A DNA stretch of 63,998 nucleotides, counting the filler, from Anaeromyces robustus (Eukaryota), in assembly GCA_002104895.1 (NCBI GenBank). It is 3 parts of 3 records of this genome, joined end to end, with 100 filler letters (N's around TTAATTAATTAA, not from the genome) between each part and the next. Parts side by side here need not be neighbours in the genome. Positions count along the whole stretch, not along the records: positions 24,963 to 49,512 come from MCFG01000601.1; 2 more parts are not named here. One strand, given 5' to 3'. Positions 28,204 to 51,470 of this stretch are shown here, in pieces; the stretch's first letter is position 1, and every line of letters starts with the position of its first letter. The notes beneath the pieces are model-generated. The model searched no databases. It saw only the letters and a program-made list of their open reading frames with translations, and had not been told where the DNA came from. Made by a program: the position numbers and the translations under genes.

Positions 28204-28835
28204 TAAGGAGAATCATTCTGAGGATCCTTATTTTTATACTGTCTTTTTTCTTTTATAATTAAATTTCGAGTTTCACATTGGCCCTCGCTGGTAGGCTCAG
28301 ACGTAAGTCCTACATTCAGCTCGAGTAAGTTGATAAACTGAAAGAACAGCAGTGTGAAATAGAAAAAATTATTAAAAGAAAAACATCTTTGTAAAATTCT
28401 GTGTAATTAAATACTTATTAAATTCTTAAGGTAAATTAATTATAAAATATACTAGGAGCGTTTAGAGCTCATATACAGAGTGTTTGGCGTAAGTAACTAG
28501 TTTCTAGTAGGTTAAGAAACTATAGTCAATTAGTTACTTAGGTATTGATAAAAGTGGGTAGTGTGAAAAGCACGCTTTCTTGGGGGAAGGAATTGTTGTG
28601 TGATAAAAAGACTGCAATATCGGACGTTCAAGTTCAATACCTTCGTAAGCTCTGGCAAATAAGGAACTTCAGTCACCGAAGGCTGGAGGTTGGTCGTGAA
28701 GGTGAAGCGACTTTAATTATATAGTTTTAATATTTATTTCGAGGTCTAGTATATACCTCTAGTTAGTAGCTTTTGCCGGTTTATTTTTGAGTTGTAAGGC
28801 ATAAAAAGCGAAATTAAAATTTAAATTTACCTTAA
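28204..28835 (+). ncRNA. Candidate large structured cis-RNA in the 5' leader of C
   Basis: Near-identical to 36146-36763(-) of A; many nested complementary segments and GNRA loops. Confidence 0.6.
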
Positions 28836-28886
28836 TAAACAATTTGAATCCCTAGTCGAGACCAATAATAAATTAATCAAATAAAA

Positions 28887-30764
28887 ATGAACGATGATAA
28901 CTTTCTCAATCTAAACGTTATGTACAAAGATGGATTCGCTGGAGACCGTCGTTTCTTTAAAGGCTTTCTTGCAAAAATGAACCTTGTCTTTATGTTGCAA
29001 CCAGAAAAGTTTTCTGAAGATCCAATCAAGGTTGCATACATCATTTCCAGACTTTACGGTTCTGCTATGAATTGGGCCGCAACTTTAATTGAAAATGTGG
29101 ACCCATGTTTAGATGACTATGAAGCGTTTATATCCAAGTTTAAAGCTACCTTTGGAAATTATGATTCAACCTTCATAGCAAACCAAAAGCTCAGAACCAT
29201 TAAACAGAGACGTCTTGGAGATGTAAGAAGCTACATCCTGGAGTTCAATAAATACGCAGATGACTCTTCTTGGAATGAAGCTGCTAAAATGGATGCTTTT
29301 CTCGCAGGATTAAACGACAATATTGCAACTAGAATCTTAGAAATGTTTCCTGGACCACAATCCTTATTCTCTCTTCAAACCATAGCTTCTCGTATAGATT
29401 TAAGACTTTCTACTCATAATCAATACTTTAAATCGAATAATTCAAGTAATCATTCTTTTGGTCGTCATGCTAACTCTTTTCAATTTGCTTCGAATAAATC
29501 TAATGAAACAATAACTCGTGAAGAAAAAGAAAGAAGAAGAAAAGAACATCTTTGTTTCTACTGTGGATCAAAAAATCATCAAGTTAATAATTGCCCTTTA
29601 AAGAATAAAGTGAATGAAGATGACAATAAACCCTCTTCCAGCAATGCTTTTATTTCCAATCCAGAATCCAAACCAAAACCAAGACCTAGACTTTCTGATG
29701 ATCCATCTTTGAATGCTCCAGTTGCCGAATTCAATCTACAAACTTTAAACTCTTCTTGCAATGCTAAACTACTCATCGATTCAGGTTCTCAATTAAATCT
29801 TATGGATATACACTTTGCTAAAGAAAACAATATTCCTTTTGATTCTGATTCTACTTTTCCTGCCGTTTCTGGAGTAGCCGGAAATCAAACAATTTTTGGT
29901 AAAACGTTTCCCATCTCGTTGAAATATAAAAATCACCTTTGTAAAACAGAATTCTATATTGTGGATCTACCTTCGTATTGTGGTATTCTTGGAATAGATT
30001 GGCTCGTAACTCACAATCCCACTATCAATTTTACAACTAAAGAAATAACTTTCAATTCAAATTACTGTCTTTCAAATTGTTTAATACTCCCAAATTCATT
30101 CGTGACGAATTCTCAAAATACAAAATCTGATAAATCTTGTAAACCTCATTCTAAAAATAATAATAATCTTGATAATCACTCTGGCAATAAATCTTTCTGT
30201 AATACTTCTTGTTTCCACTCAGAACGTACAAAATCAAGTAATTCTCAACCTTTGAAAAATAATAATAAACCAATTCATGTTTCTAACTCTTGTGTACTTC
30301 CTAGTAAAAATTCTTGTAATCCTGTTAACCTTGGTACAAATTCTTGTAATACTGTTAATCTTAGTAATAATTCCTGTAATCCTAGTAATCAATCTTTTTC
30401 CTCTGATAATCCTAATTCTTGTTTGAAATCCTATACTCAAAATCAACCTATTCAAAATATTAATCTTTCAAAACCCAATAATCCAATCTTTTCGAAGGAG
30501 AGTGTGAATGATAAAAATAAATCAAATTCAAATTTTTATTCAAAATCAAATAAATATTCTACATGTCAAAATTTTTTCTTAGCAAATTCAAAAGAAATTA
30601 TTAACAACTCTTCATACTTTGTAATCTGTAATTCAAAATCAATTAAATACAAAAGAAAACAAAACAACAAATTTAAAGAATTTAAAGTTGATGCATACCT
30701 CCCTTATGAAGATAAACCACCTGAAAATTTACTTTGTTACTTTGTTAAAAATAAATCAAAATGA
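28887..30764 (+). CDS. Gag (capsid, CCHC knuckle) - aspartic protease - Asn/Ser-rich tail
   Basis: CFYCGSKNHQVNNC, LLIDSGSQ, ILGIDWL; clearly homologous to the N-terminal ~400 aa of the A polyprotein. Confidence 0.9.
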   Translation: MNDDNFLNLNVMYKDGFAGDRRFFKGFLAKMNLVFMLQPEKFSEDPIKVAYIISRLYGSAMNWAATLIENVDPCLDDYEAFISKFKATFGNYDSTFIANQKLRTIKQRRLGDVRSYILEFNKYADDSSWNEAAKMDAFLAGLNDNIATRILEMFPGPQSLFSLQTIASRIDLRLSTHNQYFKSNNSSNHSFGRHANSFQFASNKSNETITREEKERRRKEHLCFYCGSKNHQVNNCPLKNKVNEDDNKPSSSNAFISNPESKPKPRPRLSDDPSLNAPVAEFNLQTLNSSCNAKLLIDSGSQLNLMDIHFAKENNIPFDSDSTFPAVSGVAGNQTIFGKTFPISLKYKNHLCKTEFYIVDLPSYCGILGIDWLVTHNPTINFTTKEITFNSNYCLSNCLILPNSFVTNSQNTKSDKSCKPHSKNNNNLDNHSGNKSFCNTSCFHSERTKSSNSQPLKNNNKPIHVSNSCVLPSKNSCNPVNLGTNSCNTVNLSNNSCNPSNQSFSSDNPNSCLKSYTQNQPIQNINLSKPNNPIFSKESVNDKNKSNSNFYSKSNKYSTCQNFFLANSKEIINNSSYFVICNSKSIKYKRKQNNKFKEFKVDAYLPYEDKPPENLLCYFVKNKSK

Positions 30765-31792
30765 AAAGAAAAACTTAAATAATGAATCTCAATTATTAAA
30801 TATATTTTATCAATATTTTATTCTTTATTAATATCAAACTTATTGTTATTATTATTAGTTTAAAATCTTAGCTTAGTTTAGTTTAGTCATAATATTATCA
30901 ATATCATGTAAACTTTATTAATATTCATGTATTTTAATTAATATTCATGTATTTTTATTAATATCAAATTATATTATTTTTACACCTATATAGTATAGTT
31001 TTAGTATAGTTTAAAAATTTAGTTAAAATTTTTCTTAGTATAGTTTAGCCTAGTTTTAAGATTCGTCTGGTATCCGAATCCTGAAGGAGGACCATGTAAC
31101 GAATCTCTCAATTAGTAAAATAGTAACCATGGTCTAGTGGTTAGTAACTATGACCATCTGGGCGAACACTCTGGGTTCGACTCACACCTTGTTCCAAATT
31201 TTATAAAAATTTTATTTTAAATTTATTTATTATAAATTTCTGTATTTTATTCTGTATTTGTTTCTGTATTTTATTTCTGTATTTCTTTATAGAATTACAT
31301 GGAATAAAATTAGAAACTTTAAGAAAAAATTATATAATATTTCTTTATTTTTCTATGAGATTCATTTTATATCAAAATATCTTAGTTTCTAGTAATTTTT
31401 ATTATTTTTTATGAACTTTTATTTTTAAAACTATTTTTCCGCAAAAAGTATAAATAGGTGTAAAATCTTTAGTTAAAATATTTTTCTTTGTGCTTTTATT
31501 CTTTATAACTTTATATATATTAGTAATAATTAATTCATAAGTAGTTTGAAATACTACAAAGATTAGTTATTATTAATTTTTAATAATTAATAAAACTAAA
31601 TTCTAATAAAACATATTTTAAATAAAAATAAAATAAAACTTAAAACTAAATCTTACTAATATATATATCTCGACACCGACCTTTCAGGTTAACAAAGGAA
31701 AGGTGTTCTGATATTGCAATAAGTATCTTTTATTTTAAATTTTATTTTGTTTGTGTTTACTTCAGATTTTGGTGTCAATTGTAATATTGGAA

Positions 31793-34700
31793 CTACCGTT
31801 CCGTTACAGTTTTATTGAAATTTTTAAGTAATTCTGGACAATTCAAATTTGTTTCTGGCTCCCAAGAAGCTTCTGATAAAGGATAACCTTTCCATTTTAT
31901 TAAGTATTGTATTTTTCCGTAATGCTTTCTTTTGTCCAGAATTTCTTCGACTTCATATTCCTCTTCTTCATTCACAATTATTGGTGGTGGGGGTGCTTGC
32001 TTCCTTTTGAATTTGTCTTCGAAGTAAGGTTCAAGTTCAGATACATGAATAATTGGATGAATTCTAAGGGTTTTTGGTAGTTCAATTTTATAAGAAACTG
32101 GGGATACTTTTTCAATAATCCTAAACGGTCCCAATTTTCTTGGTTTAAGCTTTTTATTTTTGTTTCGAATTATTAATGAACTATTAATCCAAACTTTGTC
32201 ATTAATTTTATATTCTGGAGCCTTTATACGATGTTTATTCGCAAAAATTTCTTGTTTTTTAACTGCTTGTTTTAGATTTTCTTTTAATTTCTTGAATAAT
32301 TCAGACAAATCTTTTGTAAATTGGTCTGCACGCGGAACATCTGAAGTACTGGGGATTGCTGGAGAAAATCTTGGGTTATATCCATAATTGGCATAGAATG
32401 GGGATTCTTTTAAGGATTCTTGTATTGTGTTGTTATAACAAAATTCTGCGAGATATAAATAGTTACTCCAATCGGTTCCTTTGAAATTTGAATAGCATCT
32501 AAGGTACTGTTCGATAACGGAGTTCACCCTCTCCGTTAGGCCATTAGTCTGGTGGTGAAATGGTGAAGAGAGTTTCATCGAAATGTTAAGGGAGTTGCAA
32601 ACTGAAGTCCAAAATTTTGAAGTAAACTGGGCACCTCTGTCAGAAAGGATATCAATTGGAAGACCATGAAGTCGAAAAACAGTGTTCATAAAAGCATTTG
32701 CAGTGTCTTCAGCGGAGGGAACATTGGGAAAGGGAATAAAGTGACCCATTTTTGAAAATCTATCCAAAATAACAAAAATGCAAGTGAAGTTGTTTGAAGA
32801 AGGAAGGTCAGTAATGAAGTCCATTGAGAGGGAAGTCCAAGGGCGATCAGGAATTTCGAGAGGGTTTAAAAATCCGTAAGGTTTATGTCTAAGATCTTTA
32901 GCTCGGCAACAAACTTCGCAGGAGCGTACGTATTCTTTTATATCAGTGTTCATGGAAGGCCACCAGAAATCACGATTGGTTAAAGAGAGAGTTTTCTTGA
33001 TGCCAAAGTGTCCAGCAGAGGGAGAATCGTGGCAAATATTAAGAACAAGGGAACGGCAACTAGTTGGCACGTATATTTTACCTTTGAATAGTAAAAAGTT
33101 ATTTATTAACGAGAAGTCATTTTGTCCAGAAGAATTATTTGAGATAAGTTTATTATAGGTTTCTTGATAAAATTTATCTTTGGAGTATTCTTTGATAATT
33201 TTTTCGTTCAAGGATGAAACTATGGAAGCTACTGCACAAAAGTTTTCGGGTCTAAGTACCGAAAAAGGAGTGTCAATGGAAGAAAGTTCTTCATCGTTGG
33301 TAGCATAATCAGGTCTACGAGAAAGTGCATCAGCTTTGCCATTAGCGGAACCAGCACGATAAACAATTTTGAAGTTAAATTCAGAGAGAAATAAAGCCCA
33401 ACGTACTAATCTTTGTGACATCTTTTCGGGTTTCTTTTGATATAAAAGATTACGGTGGTCAGAAAAAATGGTAAATGGGATCGATGTGCCTTTTAATAAG
33501 TGTCTCCAATGTTCCAGAGATTCAACAATAGCTAGAAGTTCTTTGTCGTATATCGGGTAGTTCTTTTCTGCAGAGGTAAGAGATCTAGAAAAGAAAGCAA
33601 CTGGATGAATTTTGTTATCCTTTAAAGAGTTTTGCGAGAGAATAGCCCCGATGGCAAAATTGCTGCTATCAGTTTCCACTAAGAAGGGTAGATCACGATT
33701 AGGATAAGCAAGAACTGGAGCAGAAGAGAACTTGTACTTTATTTCTTCAAAGGCATCTTGAGTTTTCGAGGTCCAACTGAATTTTATATGTTTCTTTAAT
33801 AGAGAATTAAGAGGATGAGTGATTGCTGCAAATCCAGGAATAAAGCGTCGGTAGTAGTTTGCCAAACCCAAGAATGATTGTAATTGTTTAACGTTTGCAG
33901 GGATAGGCCATTCTAAAATCGAGGAAACCTTTTTTGGGTCCATGAGAATACCATCAGAAGATATTCTGTGACCAAGAAAATCCAAGAAGGGAACACAAAA
34001 TTCGCATTTTTCAAGTTTTGCGAATAGATGGGCTTTTCTTAATCTGTTAAGTACTTCAGATAAATGAACAAAGTGAGTGTCTAAGTCAGGAGAGAAGATT
34101 ATTATGTCATCAATATAACAGAAGGCGAATTTACCCAAGACATCTTCTAAAATGTCATTTATAAAGTGTTGAAAAACGGCAGGAGCATTCTTGAGACCGA
34201 AAGGCATTACTAGATATTCAAAGTGTCCGTATTTACAAGTAAATGCCGTCTTGAATTCGTCACCTTCTTTGATCCTAACTAGGTTGTATGCCGAACGAAG
34301 ATCTAATTTTGAGAAGACTCTTCCTTTGGATAAATGTTCTAACATGTCGTTAATCAAAGGTAAAGGATAAGAGTCACGGATCGTAATATCGTTCAAATGT
34401 CGGTAGTCTACTACCATTCTTAGTTCACCATTCTTTTTTAACACAAAAAATACAGGAGCGCCAGCGGGGGATTTAGATTTTCGGATAAATCCTTTTGCTA
34501 AGTTTTCCTCGATGTATTCCTTAAGTGTGGCCGATTCCTTTTCTGTTAAAGGGTAGATTGGCCCATAATATAGCTGAGTGCCAGGAAGAAGGTTTATCTC
34601 ACAATCGTAGGGTCTATGAGGAGGTAGCTCGTTGGCATATATTTCACTGAATACATCTTTAAAAGGCCGAAGTTTAGCAGGTAATAAAGTTTGTATTTTG

Positions 34701-35965
34701 GATTCATTTTCCTTTTTTGTTTCCTTTGGAGGAATGAAGGCAGCAAAAGAACTGGGGAGCATTAGGCAATTTGAAACGCAATGATTTGATTTGAATGAAA
34801 GTTCTTTGGTTCCAAAATTAATAGTAGGATTATGTATTGAAAGCCAGTCAGTTCCTAATATGGCGCAATAGGAGGGTAAGTCAAGAACGTAAAATTTCAC
34901 TTTGCAATTATGATTTTTATAAGTCATTGAAATGGGAAAGGTTTCACCAAGTATAGTTTGATTTCCTCCAATTCCAGATATCTTGGGAAGATCTGTTTTA
35001 GTCGAGAAGGGTATATTATGTTGTTTAGCATAATATACATCCATAAGGCTAAGTTGAGAGCCGGAATCTAAAAGAATTTTTGTGTTGATGGAGGTATTTG
35101 AGACTTTGAGAATGAATTCGAAAATTGGTAACTTTAAGTCTGGTTGATCAGAAATTCTTGGCCTTGAACTAAAGTTTGCTTCGGGATTGGTGATATGGGA
35201 GGTAGTAGAAGCTTTATTCTTTTTTCTAAGTGGACATTTTTCCCACGAATGTTCAGAGGAAGCACAGTATGGGCAAAGATTTTCTCTTCTTCTTCTTTCC
35301 TTTTCTTCGTTCGATAATGGTCCGCGAGGTTTTTGATTTTGTGTTTTCTTGGAAAAACTTGATTTTCTATTGTTGTTGTTTTTGTTGTGATTATTATTGT
35401 TATTTGATTTATTTTGTGAGGTGAAAAATTGTCTCTGGGTTGAAATTCTGGAGTCAATTCTAGAAGCAATGGTTTGCATGGAGAGAAGTGTTCTAGGTCC
35501 TGGGAACATCTCAAGGATTCTGGTTGCAATTTGATCATTTAATCCAGCGAGAAAGGCATCCATTTTTGCCTCTTCATTCCACGAAGATTCGTCAGAATAC
35601 TTATTAAATTCTATAATATAATTTCGGACATCCCCAAGACGTTTTTGCCTTATGGTTCTTAATTTTTGGTTGGCGATAAATGTTGAATCGTAATCGCCAA
35701 AAGTAGCCTTGAATCTTGAAATAAAGGCTTCGTAATCGTTTAAACATGGGTCCACATTTTCTATTAAGGTTGCGGCCCAGTTCATAGCAGAACCATATAA
35801 TCTGGAGATAATGTATGCGACTTTAATGGGATCTTCGGCGAATCTTTCGGGTTGCAACATAAATATGAGATTCATCTTGGCGAGGAATCCTTTGAAGTAG
35901 CGGCGGTCTCCAGCAAAACCATCTTTGTTGTTGACACTAGCATTAAAAAATGAATCTTCTTCCAT
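31793..35965 (-). CDS. Single-ORF Gag-Pol of A: Gag, PR, RT, RNase H, integrase, chromodomain
   Basis: LLDSG, YIDD, ETDSS..DKELLAI, HHCC zinc finger, SMDF/SDRG/TER integrase core, EYEVEEILD..YLIKWKGY chromodomain. The original end (NKTN*) lies at 26558-26569, split off by C. Confidence 0.96.
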   Translation of the reverse strand: MEEDSFFNASVNNKDGFAGDRRYFKGFLAKMNLIFMLQPERFAEDPIKVAYIISRLYGSAMNWAATLIENVDPCLNDYEAFISRFKATFGDYDSTFIANQKLRTIRQKRLGDVRNYIIEFNKYSDESSWNEEAKMDAFLAGLNDQIATRILEMFPGPRTLLSMQTIASRIDSRISTQRQFFTSQNKSNNNNNHNKNNNNRKSSFSKKTQNQKPRGPLSNEEKERRRRENLCPYCASSEHSWEKCPLRKKNKASTTSHITNPEANFSSRPRISDQPDLKLPIFEFILKVSNTSINTKILLDSGSQLSLMDVYYAKQHNIPFSTKTDLPKISGIGGNQTILGETFPISMTYKNHNCKVKFYVLDLPSYCAILGTDWLSIHNPTINFGTKELSFKSNHCVSNCLMLPSSFAAFIPPKETKKENESKIQTLLPAKLRPFKDVFSEIYANELPPHRPYDCEINLLPGTQLYYGPIYPLTEKESATLKEYIEENLAKGFIRKSKSPAGAPVFFVLKKNGELRMVVDYRHLNDITIRDSYPLPLINDMLEHLSKGRVFSKLDLRSAYNLVRIKEGDEFKTAFTCKYGHFEYLVMPFGLKNAPAVFQHFINDILEDVLGKFAFCYIDDIIIFSPDLDTHFVHLSEVLNRLRKAHLFAKLEKCEFCVPFLDFLGHRISSDGILMDPKKVSSILEWPIPANVKQLQSFLGLANYYRRFIPGFAAITHPLNSLLKKHIKFSWTSKTQDAFEEIKYKFSSAPVLAYPNRDLPFLVETDSSNFAIGAILSQNSLKDNKIHPVAFFSRSLTSAEKNYPIYDKELLAIVESLEHWRHLLKGTSIPFTIFSDHRNLLYQKKPEKMSQRLVRWALFLSEFNFKIVYRAGSANGKADALSRRPDYATNDEELSSIDTPFSVLRPENFCAVASIVSSLNEKIIKEYSKDKFYQETYNKLISNNSSGQNDFSLINNFLLFKGKIYVPTSCRSLVLNICHDSPSAGHFGIKKTLSLTNRDFWWPSMNTDIKEYVRSCEVCCRAKDLRHKPYGFLNPLEIPDRPWTSLSMDFITDLPSSNNFTCIFVILDRFSKMGHFIPFPNVPSAEDTANAFMNTVFRLHGLPIDILSDRGAQFTSKFWTSVCNSLNISMKLSSPFHHQTNGLTERVNSVIEQYLRCYSNFKGTDWSNYLYLAEFCYNNTIQESLKESPFYANYGYNPRFSPAIPSTSDVPRADQFTKDLSELFKKLKENLKQAVKKQEIFANKHRIKAPEYKINDKVWINSSLIIRNKNKKLKPRKLGPFRIIEKVSPVSYKIELPKTLRIHPIIHVSELEPYFEDKFKRKQAPPPPIIVNEEEEYEVEEILDKRKHYGKIQYLIKWKGYPLSEASWEPETNLNCPELLKNFNKTVTER

Positions 35966-36145
35966 CTTCTAATTTTCGTTCTTATTGTTAAAGTTGTTTA
36001 TTGTTCTAAGTGCTTTGAGTAAAATTGCCACAGTGAGTAGTTCTATTTCTAAGATTATTAATTTTATGATTACGAGTAGAATGTTGAAGTTCATAAGACA
36101 GAATAAAATTTAAATTTTTGGAAATTTTAAGTAGGACAAATTTAT

Positions 36146-36763
36146 TTAAGGTAATTTGGAATTTCGCTTTTATGCCTTACAACAAAAAAATAACCGGCAA
36201 AAGCTACTAACTAGAGGTATATACTAGACCTCGAAGTAAAATATTAAAACTATATAATTAAAGTCGCTTCACCTTCACGACCAACCTCCAGCCTTCGGTG
36301 ACTGAAGTTCCTTGTTTGCCAGAGCTTACGAAGGTATTGAACTTGAACGTCCGATATTGCAGTGCTTTTTATCACACAACAATTCCTTCCCCCAAGAAAG
36401 CGTGCTTCTCACACTACCCACTTTTATCAATACCTAAGTAACTAATTGACTATAGTTTCTTAACCTACTAGAAACTAGTTACTTACGCCAAACACTCTGT
36501 ATATGAGCTCTAAACGCTCCTAGTATATTAAAAAAAAAAATTACCTTAAAATTTAAACAACAGAAAAAGTTTTATGGACTTATTTAACCTTTTAGTAATT
36601 TTTTTTTCTATTTCACACTGCTGTTCTTTCAGTTTATCAACTTACTCGAGCTGAATGTAGGACTTACGTCTGAGCCTACCAGCGAGGGCCAATGTGAAAC
36701 TCGAAAAATTAATTAGAAAAAGGAAGAATATTTTATAAGGATCCTCTATAACGATTCTCCTTA
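36146..36763 (-). ncRNA. Second copy of the candidate structured leader RNA (element A)
   Basis: Reverse-complement match to 28204-28835, with variable linkers. Confidence 0.6.
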
Positions 36764-36894
36764 TGACAAAATTAAAAAAAAAAAAAAAAAAACACAAAAA
36801 TTTTATTACAACACGTTATTTTCTTACCACTATTTCAGGTAAGTAATTTATTATAAATAAAAAATAATTAATTTTTTTTTTTTTTTTTTTTTTT

Positions 36895-37017: not shown

Positions 37018-37580
37018 ACAGTATTTTCCGTAGGGTAGTTTTCAACAATATTATATTCCGTAGGGTAGTCTAACACTATATTTAAAATAGTTCAGGTGTA
37101 ATTTAAAGGTAATTTATGATTTCGATTAGGGACAATATTTTCCGTAGGGTAGTCTTCGATAATATAATTTATTCCGTAGGGTAGTCTTGTGCTAAGTAAG
37201 AAATTACGGAGGTTATAAAAAGAATTATTACAGAGGGTAGTTTGTAGTGGTCCGGAAGATAGTCTAAAAAGAAATTACGGAGGGTAGTCTAAATGATTTA
37301 CGTAGGATGGCTAGAAATAATCCGGAGGGTAGTCTAAAGAAATTTATAAAGGATAGTTTATAATTGTCCGGAGGGTAGTCTAAAGAAATTTATAAAGGAT
37401 AGTTTATAATTGTCCGGAGGGTAGTCTAAAGAAATTTATAAAGGATAGTTTATAATTGTCCGGAGGGTAGTCCCAAATATAAGTAGAGTAGTCTAAGATT
37501 TAATGTAGGATAGTCTAAGATAGTCCGTAGGGTGGTCCCAGAAAGTAGGGTAGTTTCTATGTATTCCGGAGGGTAGTTTG
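36895..37580 (-). repeat. Array of ACTACCCT(A/C)CGG motifs including ~3x 46-bp tandem units in the leader of A
   Basis: Repeated ccgtagggtagt / ccggagggtagt on the + strand. Confidence 0.85.
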
Positions 37581-37638: not shown

Positions 37639-38202
37639 TGTAATAAATTGTAAAAAATAAGTAAATTATTTTACACAATTATTTTGATAGACCCAACAGG
37701 TCTACACAGAAAGTAAATCAGAAAAGAAGATTGGTTTTATAAGAACTTGTTTTATTAGATTTATTAAAAGTAAAAATTTATTTATTTATTAATTAATTTT
37801 GTAATATTCTGAATTACTTATAATTAATTAATAAAATCGCGAAGAATTAATCATTTAAAAATTTTACACCTATTTATACTTTTTACGGAAAAATAGTTTT
37901 CTTCGTAAAAAGTTGTTTAAAATTTCTAGAAACTTTTGATTAAAATCTTATGGAAAAATTTAGAAAAATTTAATATAAAAGTTGTCTTAAAATTTTTGAT
38001 TGTATTCTATTAATTTCTACGTAAAATACAGAAATAAAAATACAGAAATAAAATACAGAAATTCATAATAAAAATTTAAAAAATAAAATTTTTATAAAGT
38101 TTGTAACAAGTGTGAGTCGAACCCAGAGTGTTCGCCCAGATGGTCATAGTGACTAACCACTAGACCATGGTTACTATTTTATTAATTGTGAGATTCGTTA
38201 CA
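37639..38202 (-). repeat. 5' LTR of element A
   Basis: TGTAAC...TTACA; followed by a self-complementary PBS at 37629-37639. Confidence 0.93.
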
Positions 38203-39600
38203 TCATCGATATAAGCGAAGGCGAATACATCAAGATAATCGCTAAGAACATCATTAATAAAGTGTTGGAAAGTGGCGGGGGCGTTCTTCAAACCAAAAGG
38301 CATAACGAGGTATTCAAAATGACCGAATCTAGTATTAAAAGCTGTTTTAAATTCATCGCCTTCCCTGATGCGAACAAGATTATATGCGGACCGCAGATCG
38401 AGTTTGGTAAAGTACTTAGCACCTCTAACTTTTTCTAAAAGGTCGTTGATGAGAGGGAGAGGGTAGGAATTCCGAATAGTGATATCGTTAAGCTTTCTGT
38501 AATCAATACATAATCGAAGTGTGCCATCTTTTTTTCGAACAAAGAGAATAGAAGCACCGGCAGGGGAAATTGATTTACGAATGAAATTCTTTTCTAGGTT
38601 TTCTCTAATGTAGTCACGGAGTGCTTGAGTTTCCTCAACTGTTAAAGGATATATAGGACCATAAGGTAGAGAAGAGTCGGGTTTTAAGTCGATTCTACAA
38701 TCGTAAGGCCGATGAGGAGGAAGTTCATTAGCACCATTTTCGGAGAATACATCAAGTAGATCCAAATAAACATCAGGAAGGGATTGATTTGCTTTAGGTT
38801 CATTGACAGAAGGACAAGATACATAAATAGCGAATTTCATGGTGAAGTTTCTAGGAGGAACATTACGGGGTGGGGAATTAGTCGATGTATCATCATTATT
38901 TTCATGAGTTTCATTAAAATTTTGAGGATTAATATTTGAAGAAATAGACGAAGATGATTGATCAATGTGAGATGATGTAGATACTGTAGCATTACTTGGG
39001 ATTTCAATATTAGACGAAACACAGGAATTAGAACACGAATTACTATACTTTTTATTTTCATTTTTATTATTAACTTTATTATCTTTATTAAAATCATGTT
39101 GTACTACATTTATTACATCCTTTTGTTTAAAATACAAAGTTTCACAGTCGAAATCAATGACAGCTCCGTTTGATTTGAGCCAAGGAGTACCAATAATAGG
39201 GGGAAGAGAGTCGTCATCTGTTACTATAAATTGTATAGAGAACGAGTCATCCTTGTAAAGAATCTGGAGAGGTTTAGTAATACCTATGATATTGGAAGTT
39301 TTTCCACCACAATCAACTGTTCCAGAGACTTCAGAACTAGACAGAGGGATAGAATATTTATTAACAAAGGAATTAGAAATAGTATTTTCTATAGCCCCTG
39401 AATCGACCAAAATGGATGTGGAAACTAAGTCATCATTATCAAAAGAAAGAGTGAAAGGAAAAACTAGGTAGTTACTATTTGGGTAGAAGGGGTTGTTTAC
39501 AAAGGATTTAGGACTATTATTGGTAGAAGTCTTAGCTTCAAAAGGGTGTATACTAGAGTGAGATTTAGGCTCAGAATCTACTCTAGAAGTTAGTTTTTTG
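38203..39600 (-). pseudogene. Gypsy B pol (protease plus N-terminal RT), interrupted at YIDD
   Basis: [41 protein letters not shown]. Frame is -1 relative to gag and open back to the gag stop. Confidence 0.9.
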
Positions 39601-40402
39601 GAACTTTTGGGCAGGTAGCAACCATATGGCCTTCAACACCACAATACATGCAAAGTCCTTTAGCACGTCTTTGTTGTTTTTCTTCTGGAGTTAAAGGTCC
39701 ACGTTTTTTGCGTTCGTTCGAGGTCTTACGGGAAAAAGGATTGGTATCTTCTTCTCTCATCTTTCGCACAAATGGATTATATAAGGAAGCACCCTGATAA
39801 CCTTTGGAAACTTGATACTTTTTAAGTAAGTTTGAATCAATTATCATAGCCCTATGGAAAGCAGAAAGAAGAGTAGGAATACTATCTCCACGCATTAGTA
39901 ATTCGCATTTGACTTCTTCGTGAAGCCCATCTATAAACTTAGCTACTAATGCAGATTGATTCCATCCAAGGTGTACAGCGGCTTGTTCAAAGTCCTTAAT
40001 ATATTGGCTGACTTCACCGATACGTTCTTGCTTGAGGGCCATAATGATTTGAGTACTATTGAAAACGATGTCTATATTCCCAAACACTCTCCTCATTAAC
40101 GAAACAAAGGCATCGTAGTTGTTTAGAACAGGATTACCAGCTTGGATCAGGTGTGCTACAAAGAGTTTAGCATCACCTTCCATGAAGGAGAACATATAGG
40201 CAACCTTGTACAAGTCGTTTCGGAATAACAAGCTTTTCATGCGAAAATTGATTTCGCAATGCTGGATAAAACCTTCGAGGTCTAAACTGTTTCCAGAAAA
40301 CTTGGGCGGCTTTCCAAGGGGGAACATGAAATCTAACATGGCAGCATCGGCGGCAGATTGCTGAGAGGAGGCGGCGGCAGCGTGAAAAGGGTTGTATGAC
40401 AT
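39590..40402 (-). CDS. Gypsy B Gag
   Basis: PPKFSG, retrotransposon capsid region, [14 protein letters not shown] knuckle; ends A AAA AAC TAA. Confidence 0.9.
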
Positions 40403-40498: not shown

Positions 40499-40938
40499 TG
40501 TAACAACGCTAACGACTTAGGTTAACACAATACTAATTATACTTTTTATGTTATAAGATTAATGAGTTTTAATAACAATTTTATTTATTATTAATATTTA
40601 TTTTAACCTTAATACTAATTCTAGAGATTAATTTTACATGAAATTACAAGAATATATATTTATAAGTTAGAAATATACATAAACAATACTTTATGAGTGA
40701 AATTCACTCATAACGATTGGTTGATTTCATGGTTTGTGAAGAAAAAGAGTGGAAGAGTTATGGATCAAAATATAACTATTTATTAGTTATATTTTGATCC
40801 ATAACTGAGGGTGATACCCGGAGTCGAACTCATGACAGGTAGGTCAGAGTCCAACAACCTGACGACTACGTCAGTCGGGGAACCCCCGGTAGGAATAACT
40901 CTTTCAATGTATTTAGCTAATAGTAATACATTGTTACA
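40499..40938 (-). repeat. 5' LTR of Gypsy B (440 bp)
   Basis: TGTAAC start interrupts the Copia RT at SPTLNSD; ends GTTACA; followed by a self-complementary PBS. Its partner LTR is absent. Confidence 0.82.
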
Positions 40939-43911
40939 GTCAGAATTAAGGGTAGGTGAATAGGTTAGGTCAAAGTCGATTCCGAATTCTTGTGTAAATC
41001 CCCTAGCAACGAGTCTAGCCTTGAACTTAACGATTTGGTTATTTTCATCTCTTTTAATGGAAAATACCCATTTTGTTGAAATAATTTTCCTTCCCTTTGG
41101 AATTTTTCTGACAAAAGTCACTACATTGTTGTTGTATAAATTATCTAATTCGTCTGATATGGATTTGATCCATTTTTCGCTATTTTCGCTGTTAATAGCC
41201 TGTTTAAAGCTGAATGGGATATCAGATGAGATTGAGTTAATATAGTGAAAAGAAGAATTTTGAATAATTGAATAAATTTTATTATTATCAGTTTGATTAT
41301 CTAAATTATTATCTTTATTTGGGATTTCTTTGTTGTTTGTTTGATTTCTTGGTTCAGTGTTGATTGGATTTGAATCGAAACAGTTATTTTTAATTATATT
41401 TGAATCAATATTGTGATGGTCATTTTCGTATTTAAATGAGTATTCTCCGGGAGTATTTTCAAGAAATTTTGCCTCTCTAACTAGGTGAAGATTTTGGTTA
41501 TTGATATCCATAATAATATAGCAATCTGTATTGAATTGAATACCCAAGAAAATCCCTTCTGCAGAATTGATATCGAATTTTGATTTTTTATTTTGGATGT
41601 TATTATAAAATGATTTACAACCGAAAACTTTGATTTTAGATAGATCGACTTTTTTGTTATAAAATATCTCGTTCGGAATTAGGTTTGATATGCTACTTCT
41701 GGGAGTAATATTGTATAGATGGTTGGCATAGATAATAGCGAAAGACCAGAAGTCTAAACTGAGTTTTGCCCAATATAACAGTGTCTTGACGGAGTTGACT
41801 ATTGTCTGGTTGAATCTTTCGGCTATCCCATTATTTTCTGGATTGTAGGGTGGAGAGAATATTTTCTTGATCCCATTTCTCCTACAATACTTCTTGATTT
41901 TTGAGTTGTTGAACTCTCTACCATTGTCGCTTTTGAAAAATTTCACTTTATTGTTGTAGTGGTTATCTAAGTACTTGAGAAAATATAAAATAGTATTAGT
42001 GGCTTCTGATTTTTCCTTTAATAAAAAGACCCATGATTTTCTGCTAAACTCATCAATAAATGTAATGATATATTTCATTCCATCTATTGAGGCTGGTTTA
42101 ATTGGTCCCATGATATCTGAGTGAATGGTTTCTAGGACTCTAGATGCCTTCGGGGTGGTTTTGTTATGTGGATGTCTCTTCATTTTGGAAATATCACATT
42201 CCTTGCAATTTGTTTCTTTATCTTCATGTAATTCTAGGTAATTATTGATATCCTTAAAATAGAAATGTCCTAATCGGTTGTGCCAGATCTTTAGGTTGTC
42301 ACCGGTCTCTGTAGAATTAATGTTGGAGTTTGAACTAGTGAGTTTTATTCTGGCTATATTGTAATTGTCTGGTACAATTTGGGCAATGATGGTGTTATTT
42401 TCATTGGTTAAATTTAGGTAAGTCTTATTGTTGACACTTTTAATATTTGAAAATATGCCCATTTTTGCCAGTTTAATACCGCTGATTAAGTTTTTATTAA
42501 TGTCCTTTGAGTAGAGGACTTTATCCAGGACTATCTCGTAACCGTTAATTTTCCCACGAAATGTACCATAACCTTCAAAGACGCAGGTAGAATTGTTGGC
42601 ACAACTCATAGTGATTTTTTTTTCCTTAAAATTTTCTAAAAGGCCCCTCTCGTTGGTGATATGTTCACTTGCACCAGTATCGAAGGTCCAGGTTGACTCA
42701 TTTTGGTCACGTGATATTTTAGAAAATAAATTTGACAAAACTTCTTCGTTTTGATCGGGAGACACGTTTTCTACTGGTTTGGAACCATCTTCAAAATTCA
42801 CGTGATAATTTTTTGATTGGTTATCGTTAATGTCTACAGTACATAAATCTATGTTGTGTTCATCTTCTTTATTTTGGTCATGTGATCCATACTCAATATT
42901 TCCAATGGGTTCTCCAAACATTTCTTTTATTTCTTCATAACAAGGCGTGAATTCTCTTCTGTTGCTTGGTTCAATGTTGTATGTTCCACGTTTGTAGTGG
43001 TTTGTTTCCTTCTTATTGTCGTTTTTATGTTTCTTGTAGTGGTTGCTAAATTTTGAACGGTGATTAGGTCTGTTGGTTCCGCGTGGATTAAAGTAACAAT
43101 CCTTTGCAATATGGCCTTTATTAAAACAGATAATGCAGTATTTGTCGTTTTTATTTAAATTCCTATCATTTGTTTGTTTTTTGTTTTTACCGGTTTCCAC
43201 GTTGTCTATGTCCATTGGGTCATAGCAATCCTTGAAATCCGGAGTGTTTGTATTTTGGCTATAATTTGAAGAGGAAGGTCTTCTGCTTCGGATTTGGTTA
43301 GTTCCTCTGTCAAACTTGTACATATAAATCATGTATTTATTTTTAATTTCTTTATAAAAATCTTCCACAGTTAATTCTGAGCTGAAATTAACCCTTTGTT
43401 GTAATGATGCTGGTAAAGCATCATACATGATACTTAATTTCTCCATATCGGAAGGGTTCATCAAGGAATTGCTCAGAAGTCGAAAAAGTTCTTTGATTTC
43501 ATTGATCACATCCATTGTTTCTTGGATGTGTTTTGCGCGGATGCTATATAATCTGTTCATCCACATACCATGAAAGGCAGATTCGTCTCTTTGGTAAAGA
43601 GCCTTAAGTTTATCCATTTTACTTTTAGCACATGGGCAGTCTTTAATGTACATCTTTACCATGTCAGAGACATTTGAGAATATGACAGTACATGCGGCGG
43701 CGTCGTTTGCGATAGTATCTTGGTTTCTTGCAACTTCTTCCTTGGTTAGTTTACTACCCCTTTCCGGAGTGATCATTAGCTCATTTAATTCATATTTAAT
43801 ATACTTATGAAGTTTTTTGGACTTAAGATAGTCTTCAATAGTAGCAAACCATATTGGAAAGTTGGTGGCTCCTTGTAACTTTTCTTTTTCAGAAAGACGA
43901 AATTCGAACAT
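40939..43911 (-). pseudogene. Ty1/Copia Gag-PR-IN-RT polyprotein, interrupted in RT
   Basis: CIICFNKGHIAKDC, WTFDTGASEH, WHNRLGH..C..C, HSDIMGP, SDNGREF, NGIAER, KARLVARGFTQ; integrase precedes RT. Confidence 0.93.
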
Positions 43912-49512: not shown

Positions 49513-49612
49513 NNNNNNNNNNNNNNNNNNNNNNNNNNNNNNNNNNNNNNNNNNNNTTAATTAATTAANNNNNNNNNNNNNNNNNNNNNNNNNNNNNNNN
49601 NNNNNNNNNNNN
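49513..49612. other. Assembly gap / contig linker
   Basis: N runs flanking TTAATTAATTAA. Confidence 0.97.
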
Positions 49613-50080
49613 ATGTAGCTTTTTCCCAGAGCTTCTTATTAAAGTTAGTTTGAACACAGTGTAATGAATGTGATGTAAAGTAGATTTTGTGAGATATGTT
49701 CATTTTTGATCATGAAATATTTTTATTGTGGGTTAAAGGTTTTATATATTAAATTGGGGGTATTTCATTTAATATATAAAATAGGATACCTATTAAGAAA
49801 TGTAAATTTTTGTTTTTAACTTGGTGAAATGGGGTCACATCCATTAAATTAATTTAGTCTCGTAACCCTTAATAATATTTTAACTAAAAATTACTTCAAA
49901 ATTAAATAATAAAAAGCTAGTAAAAATTAATATTTTGAAAATTCATTCAATTTAAATTTTAATGTTACATATAAAAATATTTTTAAATATTATAATCTAC
50001 TTATTTTCTCGACATTTTTCCAGCATTGTTATTTTATATTTATATTTTAGGTCTAAGTGTAAACTTAAGCCAACAAGCAA

Positions 50081-50152
50081 GGAGGGTTGGCGCAACGGTA
50101 GCGCGTCCGCCTCCAGAGCGGAAGGTTGGGCGTTCGAATCGCTCACTCTCCA
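50081..50152 (+). tRNA. tRNA-Trp (CCA)
   Basis: Cloverleaf; anticodon arm TCCGC-CTCCAGA-GCGGA; T-loop TTCGAAT; T-run downstream. Confidence 0.95.
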
Positions 50153-50259
50153 TAAATCCTTGTCTTTTTTCTTTTTTTTATTATTAAATTATTAGTTTTA
50201 AATAGTATCATTAGAAATTAATTTGTTCTTTAAAACACCTAAAGAAAAGAAAAGAAAAG

Positions 50260-50303
<44 letters not shown>

Positions 50304-50339
50304 ATTTTATTATTAGAAACACAATTCAAATATTAGAAT

Positions 50340-50715
50340 AATAATAATAATTTGACTAATATTATGTATTAATAATAGTTAAGAAATAATTTAACTAACA
50401 TTAAAATTAAAGTAATAATAATATTTAACTAACATTAAAATTAAAGTAATAATAATATTTAACTAATATTATGTATTAAAAATAGTTAAGAAATAATTTA
50501 ACTAACATTAAAAATTGAAATAATAATAATAATTTGACTAATATTATGTATTAAAAATAGTTAAGAAATAATTTAACTAACATTAAAAATTGAAATAATA
50601 ATAATAATTTGACTAATATTATGTATTAAAAATAGTTAAGAAATAATTTAACTAACATTAAAAATTGAAATAATAATAATAATTTGACTAATATTATGTA
50701 TTAATAATAGTTAAA
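50340..50715. repeat. 75-bp AT-rich minisatellite
   Basis: aatttgacta recurs at 50531, 50606 and 50681. Confidence 0.85.
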
Positions 50716-50959
50716 AAAAATTTAAAAGGAAATATTTATATGCATTTATATTTTTTTTTAAAGTTAAATTATTTACAATTTAAATATAAAATAATAATTA
50801 TTTACAATAATAAAAGTAATGATAAAATAATTAAAAAATTAGTAATAAAAATAATTAAATTTTTAATGATTTAAAAAAAAATAATGATATGATATATAAA
50901 ATATCTAAATATTTTAACTGTAGCTTTATATTATATATAAATAAATTTAATTATAAATA

Positions 50960-51470
50960 TTTAATAAATTATTTTGACCAAATAGGTCAACACAAGATTA
51001 AGTAATTAGAATAAAAAAATGGTTTATTAGGAATTGGTTTTTATAAGATTTTTATTAAAATTAAAAGTTAAAAAAAAGTATTAATCAATTGTTGTAATAT
51101 TCTAAATTACTTATGAATTAATTAATGAAGTCGCGAAGAAAAATATCTTCTTAATAAAATTTTACGGAGGAAAAATAGTTTCTTTTGTAAAAAGTTATTA
51201 AGATTACTAGAAACTTATATTAATTTTCTTTTCTTTTCTTTTTTTTTTCGATAAGATTCATTTTAAATCAAAAAAATCTAAGATTTTCTAAAGGTTTCTG
51301 ATTTTATTCTATTAATTTCTATAATAAAATACAGAAATAAAATATAGAAATAAAATACAAAAATTTATAATAAATACTTTTTTAAAAATAAAAATGTTTT
51401 ATAAAAGTAGAAAAAATGTGAGTCAAACCTAGATGGTTCAACCTGATGATCGTAGTGACTAACCACTAGT
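50960..51470 (-). mobile_element. Degenerate solo LTR of the A/C family
   Basis: Colinear with 25650-26140 (aggtc..caca, tcgcgaagaa, aaaatacagaaat repeats, gtgagtc..gtgactaaccactag). Confidence 0.75.

Follow-up and report, generated by a model that had tools for sequence, protein, structure and literature searches.

Two retrotransposons in the genome of the anaerobic gut fungus Anaeromyces robustus, one nested in the other, share a stretch of non-coding leader far more similar than the rest of their sequence, and the question is whether this stretch contains a functional RNA and, if so, what such an RNA would do for the elements. The window analysed here (a stretch of DNA of 63,998 nucleotides (nt), joined from parts of three records of assembly GCA_002104895.1) holds both of them, here called copy A and copy C, within the part derived from record MCFG01000601.1 (positions 24,963 to 49,512). 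Comparison of their leaders outlined a non-coding, sense-strand domain located between primer-binding site (PBS) and gag ATG (28203-28835 in C, with the gag ATG at 28887; Table 1), composed of two nearly invariant blocks embedded in diverged sequence. That these blocks are a functional cis-acting sense-RNA domain of the 5' untranslated region (5'UTR) is highly probable. Our preferred reading, to which we assign a probability of roughly 0.45, is that they form a packaging/dimerisation-type leader domain of the genomic RNA.

The first-pass annotation of this locus had described some 600 nearly identical nucleotides. A BLASTN search of the window against itself aligned 28195-28821 (+) with 36773-36153 (-) at 90.3% identity over 637 columns, substantiating the conservation but not the notion of a single unit, as the identity resides in two separate blocks. 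Block 1 is identical in A and C over 105/105 nt, and the core of block 2 over 331/337 columns, with three substitutions and three one-base indels separating exact runs of 121, 43, 49, 75 and 44 nt. Furthermore, two exact 12-mers (28203-28214 and 28220-28231) are shared by A and C in a hairpin at the 5' edge of the domain. The flanks, linkers and synonymous sites of gag had been described as divergent, and this was borne out by the identity of the linker between the blocks (46.6%, with 13 gap columns), of the spacers within the domain (31-44%; non-block linkers overall, 31-47%) and of gag itself, which the same BLASTN search aligned at only 78.5% (28924-29390 versus 35928-35462). Over the first 200 gag codons, synonymous divergence between A and C is saturated (pS 0.84) and non-synonymous divergence (pN) amounts to 0.134. 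The leader domain is thus 98-100% conserved between an autonomous element and one encoding gag and protease only, despite a gag pS of 0.84. Judged by these sequence comparisons, the conservation of the blocks lies far beyond neutral and exceeds roughly tenfold that of the protein sequence which the element conserves best.

The non-coding status of the stretch, also claimed at first pass, was supported by the reading frames. At ~60 codons, the longest open stretch through the blocks lacks an ATG and is interrupted at 28610 by the 1-nt indel; a protein-coding reading of the blocks was rejected, with no open reading frame (ORF) running through them. Counting from the inferred transcription start, the 5'UTR extends over 1922 nt with three ATGs in C and 1871 nt with one ATG in A, in agreement with the earlier description of a leader well over 1.5 kb. 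With expectations derived from 500 dinucleotide shuffles, the sense strand of the leader downstream of the long terminal repeat (LTR) presented 3 ATGs against 17.2 expected in C and 1 against 12.2 in A, and the block region presented none against 7.4 (C) and 5.9 (A); in all four cases, 0/500 shuffles were as low. On the antisense strand, the post-LTR leader contains 10 ATGs against 10.6 expected in C (248/500 shuffles as low) and 13 against 12.3 in A (337/500). When both post-LTR leaders are taken together, none of the 64 trinucleotides is as depleted as ATG (4 counted against 29.3 expected). Because the depletion is confined to the sense strand, the domain belongs to an mRNA leader scanned by ribosomes, and the pattern shows that it is under constraint as sense RNA within that leader.

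The only three ATGs of the C upstream leader sit in an A/T-rich stretch. The sole ATG of the A leader, at 36094, opens a hydrophobic upstream ORF of 42 codons (36094-35968, -) that lies in the gag frame and stops one codon before the gag ATG. Upstream of the domain, both leaders are rich in CTACC-type words, with CTACC occurring at short intervals in C (27300-28014) and GACTACCCTACGGA-like units in A (37600-36900, -), and the A upstream leader also contains tandem repeats of ~46 nt at 37216-37472. This CTACC-rich upstream leader may constitute a single-stranded binding platform.

The description of the stretch as a structured RNA held up in part, in that the predicted fold is moderately better than that of shuffled sequences and remains a prediction with a single compensatory pair. 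The domain built on block 2 (28420-28840; domain 2) presented a minimum free energy (MFE) of -100.7 kcal/mol (z -2.65, 1/100 shuffles as good), and block 1 a z of -2.25, with 6/200 shuffles folding as well. In a sliding 150-nt scan, the block 1 window 28240-28389 was the most structured of the post-LTR leader (z -3.45), and upstream leader windows between 27415 and 28014 folded worse than their shuffles (z +1.5 to +2.1). All the pairings proposed by the first-pass annotation were found in place. Block 1 is predicted to adopt a multi-branch fold, closed by a helix between 28271-28280 and 28350-28359 and containing the GAC-GUAA-GUC hairpin (GAC-GTAA-GTC in the DNA), a proper GNRA hairpin. A second GNRA tetraloop, proposed as GAAA in C and GAGA in A, was not recovered: the A/G difference at 28567 is real, but the predicted loop comprises five bases (AAAAG in C, AGAAG in A).

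Domain 2 is closed by a 12-bp helix (28426-28437/28824-28835), formed by GGTAAATT/AATTTACC in C and by GGTAATTT/AAATTACC in A. As had been pointed out, A keeps this outer helix in variant form, with one change on both sides that amounts to a compensatory replacement of A-U (C) by U-A (A). In a two-sequence consensus fold of 144 pairs, 0 pairs were broken in either copy, 1 presented a compensatory change and 2 presented one-sided changes, and 8/8 of the A/C differences inside block 2 were unpaired in the MFE fold of C, in which 56% of positions are paired. The complementarity reported between a 9-nt hairpin loop and a segment at about 28447 was also confirmed: CTAGTATAT (about 28748-28756) is complementary to ATATACTAG (about 28447-28455), both are invariant between A and C, and the MFE fold uses them as a long-range helix. 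Such a loop could engage in a pseudoknot or in an intermolecular contact. The blocks also contain several 8-nt palindromes, among them GTATATAC at 28749, invariant in A and C. A difference in folding energy between strands (-100.7 versus -69.7 kcal/mol) was rejected as evidence, with z-scores being equal and base composition mostly accounting for it. Taken as a model, the fold is plausible and unproven.

Table 1. Coordinates of the leader domain and of the elements carrying it, in positions of the window.
Feature	Position	Strand	Details
Hairpin at 5' edge of domain (C)	28203-28231	+	Arms ATAAGGA/TCCTTAT kept in A (36764-36735, -); loop sequence and length differ
Block 1 (C)	28264-28368	+	Counterpart in A at 36706-36602
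Variable linker between blocks (C)	28372-28425	+	
Closing helix, 5' strand (C)	28426-28437	+	Pairs with 28824-28835
Block 2 core (C)	28447-28781	+	Counterpart in A at about 36528-36192
Block 2 tail, then variable spacer (C)	28782-28823	+	Tail 88.5% identical up to 28807
Closing helix, 3' strand (C)	28824-28835	+	
Same domain in copy A	36153-36773	-	Ends about 190 nt before A gag ATG at 35965
Upstream leader (C)	27294-28202	+	Sequence unconserved with A; CTACC-type repeats
PBS (C)	27284-27293	+	Complementary to 26965-26974 (inferred self-primer and transcription start)
PBS (A)	37638-37629	-	Complementary to 37840-37831
Copy C, whole element	26570-31808	+	Opposite orientation to A, within last codons of A frame
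5' LTR (C)	26570-27283	+	TG...CA ends; TATAAATA at 26924; AATAAA-containing word at 27077-27088
3' LTR (C)	31095-31808	+	714/714 identical to 5' LTR
Target-site duplication (C)	26565-26569 and 31809-31813		GTTTT (5 bp)
ORF (C)	28887-30764	+	gag (capsid, CCHC knuckle) and protease, then low-complexity tail
gag-pol frame (A)	31793-35965	-	1390 aa, intact; final codons extend into LTR of C
LTRs (A)	38202-37639 and 26174-25611	-	Aligned at 99.8%

The presence of the domain beyond this locus was apparent in public sequencing runs. At least half of the words of 28195-28900 were present in 20 of the 24 runs listed (17 studies), and 9 of these 20 are on record as RNA; the labels of the runs read 'organism A' or 'fungus metagenome'. 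Contigs of RNA libraries were mapped from four runs belonging to four studies (zero depth at 27990-28131 coincides with a repeat excluded from mapping and carries no meaning), with variants being those listed only, and contigs of 4/4 runs cover 28443-28781 (28443-28770 in run X6). The block 2 contigs of 4/4 runs presented no substitutions with respect to C among the variants listed and contained the extra C of A at 28610, apparently representing a third block 2 variant that combines the bases of C with the insertion of A. In addition, one contig of run X1 has a loose end before 28445: it leads into block 2 by way of a third linker, distinct from those of A and C, and has the helix strand in its A form. 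With a third block 2 variant and a third linker in the contigs, the conservation pattern seen between A and C extends beyond this locus. Runs X1 and X17 each contain one contig that lacks 28482-28649 (168 nt with GT..AG ends, inside block 2), and both contigs also skip the linker (28359 to 28443). The 168-nt skip removes roughly three hairpins flanked by two predicted helices, its borders falling within 2-3 nt of where the helices end. It may reflect splicing, a deletion or a divergent member of the family. In 3/4 of the runs examined, C-type contigs presented indels in the low-complexity tail (30316-30384).

In keeping with the earlier statement that no known family could be recognised, an Rfam scan of the window at gathering score returned only 6 tRNAs, and a scan of 28100-28900 at E up to 10 yielded only two noise matches (E 5.9 and 7.7), to mir-7950 (15.5 bits, gathering 82) and drum (14 bits, gathering 43). 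BLASTN of the window against itself detected no copy of the blocks outside the two leaders. Relatives of the A polyprotein, with 50-100% identity in gag, fall into at least 32 clusters that stem from metagenomes, metatranscriptomes and genomes, and one cluster bears a source name suggestive of an anaerobic gut fungus. When metagenomes were scanned with a gag-pol alignment of 20 proteins, 80 loci were retained, of which only three were close (L001, with 70% amino acid identity, and L002 and L003, with 50%). Neither block copy matched any of the 80 loci (BLASTN, word size 7, E 1e-3), and in local alignments of the L001, L002 and L003 leaders with the block, 167, 47 and 19 of 300 shuffles, respectively, scored at least as well. 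Searches with exact 24-nt patterns returned 0 matches for block 2 in viral and prokaryote contig collections and 0 matches for block 1 in the prokaryote contig collection, and a protein scan of the viral contigs identified only caulimo-like relatives with 26-33% identity in reverse transcriptase. The parts of the literature on Neocallimastigomycota LTR retrotransposons that were available describe neither the leaders of such elements in anaerobic gut fungi nor any RNA acting in cis there.

The three close loci nonetheless share a general design with A and C, in which the leader avoids AUG, carries CTACC-type repeats and has a folded, GC-rich module ahead of gag. Within ~400 nt of leader, L001 contains 1 ATG and L002 and L003 contain 0. 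L001 presents an unrelated GC-rich block of ~200 nt upstream of gag (160-385), closed by a long-range helix (z -4.8 with mononucleotide shuffles), and L002 (215-285) and L003 (1270-1335) share a small hairpin, TCGAYC/GRTCGA, with a compensatory change from C-G to U-A. The sequence of the folded module is specific to each family, as would be expected of a particle-specific recognition signal. The L002 and L003 leaders carry GAACTACCGCC as their CTACC-type unit, and L001 has an upstream in-frame ATG without a stop. Two other candidate origins or roles were discarded. Priming by, or pairing with, a tRNA was rejected for the block, the longest complement to the six tRNAs of the window being 7-8 nt. 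A miniature inverted-repeat transposable element (MITE) or other DNA transposon nested in the leader, mimicked by the 12-bp inverted strands and TTAA, which resemble terminal inverted repeats and a target-site duplication, was rejected because block 1, outside the strands, is equally conserved, the strands co-vary and the window holds no copy outside the leaders.

The relationship between the two elements is central to the interpretation of the domain. Copy A, whose frame matched the Pfam domains gag, RVP_2, RVT_1, RNase H, Integrase_H2C2, rve, SH3_Tf2-1 and Chromo, is autonomous, and these matches upheld the earlier assignment of the stretch to a retrotransposon leader, that of a Ty3/gypsy-type element. 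Copy C is non-autonomous and was recently mobilised, given its identical LTRs, its GTTTT duplication and its lack of reverse transcriptase and integrase, neither of which was found by a domain search of its ORF. C must thus have borrowed both enzymes from another element and, having transposed with them, has to present the RNA features recognised by the shared particle. Outside gag, the exact words of 10 nt or more shared by A and C are mainly located in the first ~93 nt of U3, the TATA region, the poly(A)-signal word, the LTR end with the PBS start, the polypurine-tract region and the leader domain; the remaining words in common are short, A/T-rich and dispersed. None of these shared segments approaches the leader domain in size, and the others named here are established cis-acting signals for reverse transcription, integration and expression. 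The first ~93 nt of U3, nearly identical between the LTRs of C (26570-26662) and A (38202-38110), hold words that give an impression of tRNA A and B boxes; the U3 start matched no tRNA family of Rfam at E up to 1, nor was it significantly similar to the window's own tRNAs.

Three functions had been offered at first pass for the stretch. Packaging/dimerisation fits best, because the domain is common to autonomous and gag-protease-only elements; an internal ribosome entry site (IRES) is disfavoured by the AUG-free 5'UTR, and a ribozyme finds no support in Rfam. Under the packaging/dimerisation reading, the full-length RNA would start with an AUG-free 5'UTR of ~1.9 kb, scanned by ribosomes from the cap, in which the first kb after the PBS would be repeat-rich and poorly structured and the last ~600 nt would fold into two closed domains. 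Situated between the PBS and the gag AUG, these would serve as the recognition, packaging and dimerisation signal read by Gag/nucleocapsid. Gag would bind the domain, and any dimer contact may be made through the 9-nt loop complementarity.

Like the packaging signal Psi and the dimerisation initiation site (DIS) of human immunodeficiency virus 1 and murine leukaemia virus, and like the 5' cis-acting region of Ty1, the A/C domain lies on the sense strand between PBS and gag, surpasses all other parts of the element in conservation, lacks AUGs and contains multiple predicted hairpins with loop complementarity. It differs from them in having no sequence or Rfam relation, in its larger size (~600 nt in two closed domains), in its location ~900 nt downstream of the PBS instead of adjoining it, and in that its binding by Gag and its dimerisation are putative. 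The structure of the Ty1 cis-acting RNA has been described (PMC3592414). The closest parallel among the accounts available is that of BARE1 and BARE2 in barley, an autonomous and a defective lineage that keep common leader signals: the parasitic BARE2 is reported to retain the dimerisation and packaging signals of BARE1 and to be packaged in BARE1 particles (PMC3735527). BARE is a plant Copia element and BARE2 lacks Gag, whereas C keeps gag and protease without reverse transcriptase and integrase, which brings it closer to the plant TR-GAG type (PMC4350172) than to BARE2.

As regards the host elements, A and C are Tf1-like, apparently self-priming chromoviruses of anaerobic gut fungi. In both, the PBS directly following the 5' LTR complements the transcript's inferred 5' end; the complementary 10-mer lies 41 nt (C) and 38 nt (A) downstream of the conserved TATAAATA, and the PBS/self-primer 10-mers of A and C differ at two positions, each compensated in the partner. 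The Tf1/Tj1-type elements of fission yeasts, which have short leaders, resemble A in possessing a single gag-pol frame and an integrase with a Tf2-type SH3 domain and a chromodomain. A PBS complementary to the 5' end of the element's own mRNA, as seen in A and C, has been described for Tf1 and proposed for Tj1, and the available part of that account mentions no 5'UTR comparable to the 1.9-kb one seen here and no conserved leader domain (PMC4600332).

Several observations weigh against the reading of the blocks as a structured packaging/dimerisation domain. The folding z-scores are modest and similar on the antisense strand (-2.52), 150-nt windows in block 2 reach only z -1.5 to -1.8, with two being positive (up to +0.8), and only 5/8 of the block 2 differences are unpaired in the MFE fold of A itself. 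The fold draws its support from two genomic copies with a single compensatory pair, too few for covariation. An identity of ~99% over 440 nt is tighter than structure alone normally imposes, and another constraint may act on it. The contigs provide neither strand nor transcript ends nor proof that the RNA is real, and DNA may be present in the libraries. Moreover, A and C lie 7 kb apart in inverted orientation, making local sequence exchange possible. It is improbable that the domain embodies a new large class of retroelement RNA (~600 nt, two closed domains) that is more than a packaging signal; a sequence-demanding role, which would account for ~99% identity across lineages saturated at synonymous sites, could be that of a conformational switch between scanning/translation and dimerisation/packaging, or a catalytic or self-processing activity, of which the 168-nt GT..AG skip might be a hint.

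Control of translation, whereby the folded domain would recruit or redirect ribosomes (as an IRES, a shunt landing structure or an enhancer) or would switch the RNA between translation and packaging, is unlikely. The domain ends 51 nt before the gag AUG of C, close to the ~50 nt originally reported, a very long 5'UTR precedes gag in both copies, and the 12-bp closing helix brings 28426 beside 28835, which conforms to a shunt geometry. Yet the 5'UTR is nearly AUG-free throughout, a property that internal entry would not need, and a classic IRES is disfavoured because the ~900-1000 nt ahead of the domain are also purged of AUG, as cap scanning predicts. Nor is this an unscannable leader of the kind expected for an IRES, its ATGs numbering 3 in C and 1 in A. 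Furthermore, the spacing to the AUG is not conserved, the domain of A being located ~190 nt away with the 42-codon upstream ORF in between, and the related elements carry unrelated blocks, when a ligand of the host ribosome might be expected to be common to them. The caulimovirus 35S leader, from a related reverse-transcribing element, resembles those of A and C in its length and in a large folded domain that a stable helix closes a short way ahead of the first long ORF. However, it carries several short ORFs and its shunt depends on a short upstream ORF, whereas the A/C leader is AUG-free and the caulimo-like contigs are only 26-33% identical in reverse transcriptase; this dependence also speaks against a shunt in A and C.

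A large, conserved, sense-strand non-coding domain of a full-length retroelement RNA, common to an autonomous and a non-autonomous lineage, would also suit an element that promotes nuclear export or stability of the unspliced RNA, comparable to constitutive transport elements. We consider this improbable. Such transport elements, found in simple retroviruses and in some mouse LTR elements, lie mostly near the 3' end, and a ligand of host factors would not need a family-specific sequence. Leader splicing left no sign, the only GT..AG joint being the 168-nt skip, present in one contig each in 2/4 runs.

The probability is also low for a DNA-level module (such as a downstream enhancer, a promoter, whether internal or antisense, or a signal for chromatin or targeting) in which the RNA fold would be incidental. 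It would agree with the similar folding z-scores of the two strands, with the 8-nt palindromes and with the blocks being GC-rich islands (about 0.37-0.43) within DNA of 8-25% GC. Nevertheless, ~440 nt at 98-100% identity far exceed what protein-binding sites need, the helix strands co-vary, the A/C differences fall in loops of the predicted fold of C, and ATG avoidance places the stretch within a translated mRNA.

That the blocks have no special function and owe their identity to recent exchange between A and C, through template switching in co-packaged RNAs or gene conversion, is distinctly improbable. C is inserted in A, with the blocks 7.3 kb apart and inverted, and the comparison covers two genomic copies only. 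An exchange, however, would have had to produce two identical blocks split by a linker that aligns at 46.6% with 13 gap columns and bordered by unalignable flanks, for which a homology-driven route needs four crossovers in sequence without homology. In addition, the apparent third block 2 variant occurs in contigs of 4/4 runs from four studies, one of them with the third linker, and selection is required for the avoidance of ATG inside the blocks. It is very improbable that the blocks are a catalytic or self-splicing RNA (a ribozyme or an intron) or a gene for a non-coding RNA captured from the host: the GNRA-type GAC-GUAA-GUC hairpin, four instances of GTAAG in the 452 nt of the blocks (three as CGTAAG) and the 168-nt GT..AG skip (28481 to 28650; one contig each in X1 and X17) are countered by the lack of any Rfam family at E up to 10 beyond the two noise matches, by the skip donor, GTTTGG, being unlike the GTAAGT-type consensus expected of a splice donor and the skip possibly marking a diverged copy, and by the lack of a stand-alone copy in the window.

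The surroundings of the domain are those of a nested retroelement pile spanning ~25.6-44 kb of the window, where GC content is 9-17% outside mobile elements and 24-36% inside. The target duplication of A is unmatched (GATGA versus ATCAA), so that its two ends may be rearranged. A third Ty3/gypsy fragment (gag, protease and partial reverse transcriptase; 38160-40402, -) is truncated by the LTR of A and adjoins a Copia-type fragment (gag, integrase and the start of reverse transcriptase; 40783-43911, -). Elsewhere in the window are a 1455-aa open frame without Pfam match (18824-23191, -), a 154-aa frame with a DUF4258 domain (24349-24813, -) and a tRNA cluster (49600-63998) comprising five tRNA-Trp(CCA) and one tRNA-Cys(GCA) in repeat units that are 80-99% identical.

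The leader element is real, strongly constrained and undescribed, and it is of a known kind, a cis-acting leader RNA of a reverse-transcribing element. Its discovery entails no new kind of biology: this is an expected type of element in an unstudied host group and would come as no surprise to specialists. Its size, its position ~900 nt past the PBS, its near-perfect conservation and its occurrence in a pair of elements of which one is autonomous and the other is not recommend it as a candidate new RNA family and, if the fold is confirmed, it would provide a new Rfam family and a handle for annotating very AT-rich genomes. The leaders also offer a clean example of a ~1.9-kb 5'UTR kept scannable by the purging of AUGs. 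Above all, A and C constitute a natural experiment, in which an autonomous element and a recently mobilised, gag-protease-only one have kept similarity only in those signals that the machinery common to both has to read. The domain that they share is a well-defined candidate for the signal by which the genomic RNA of a Tf1-like chromovirus, apparently a self-priming one, would be recognised.

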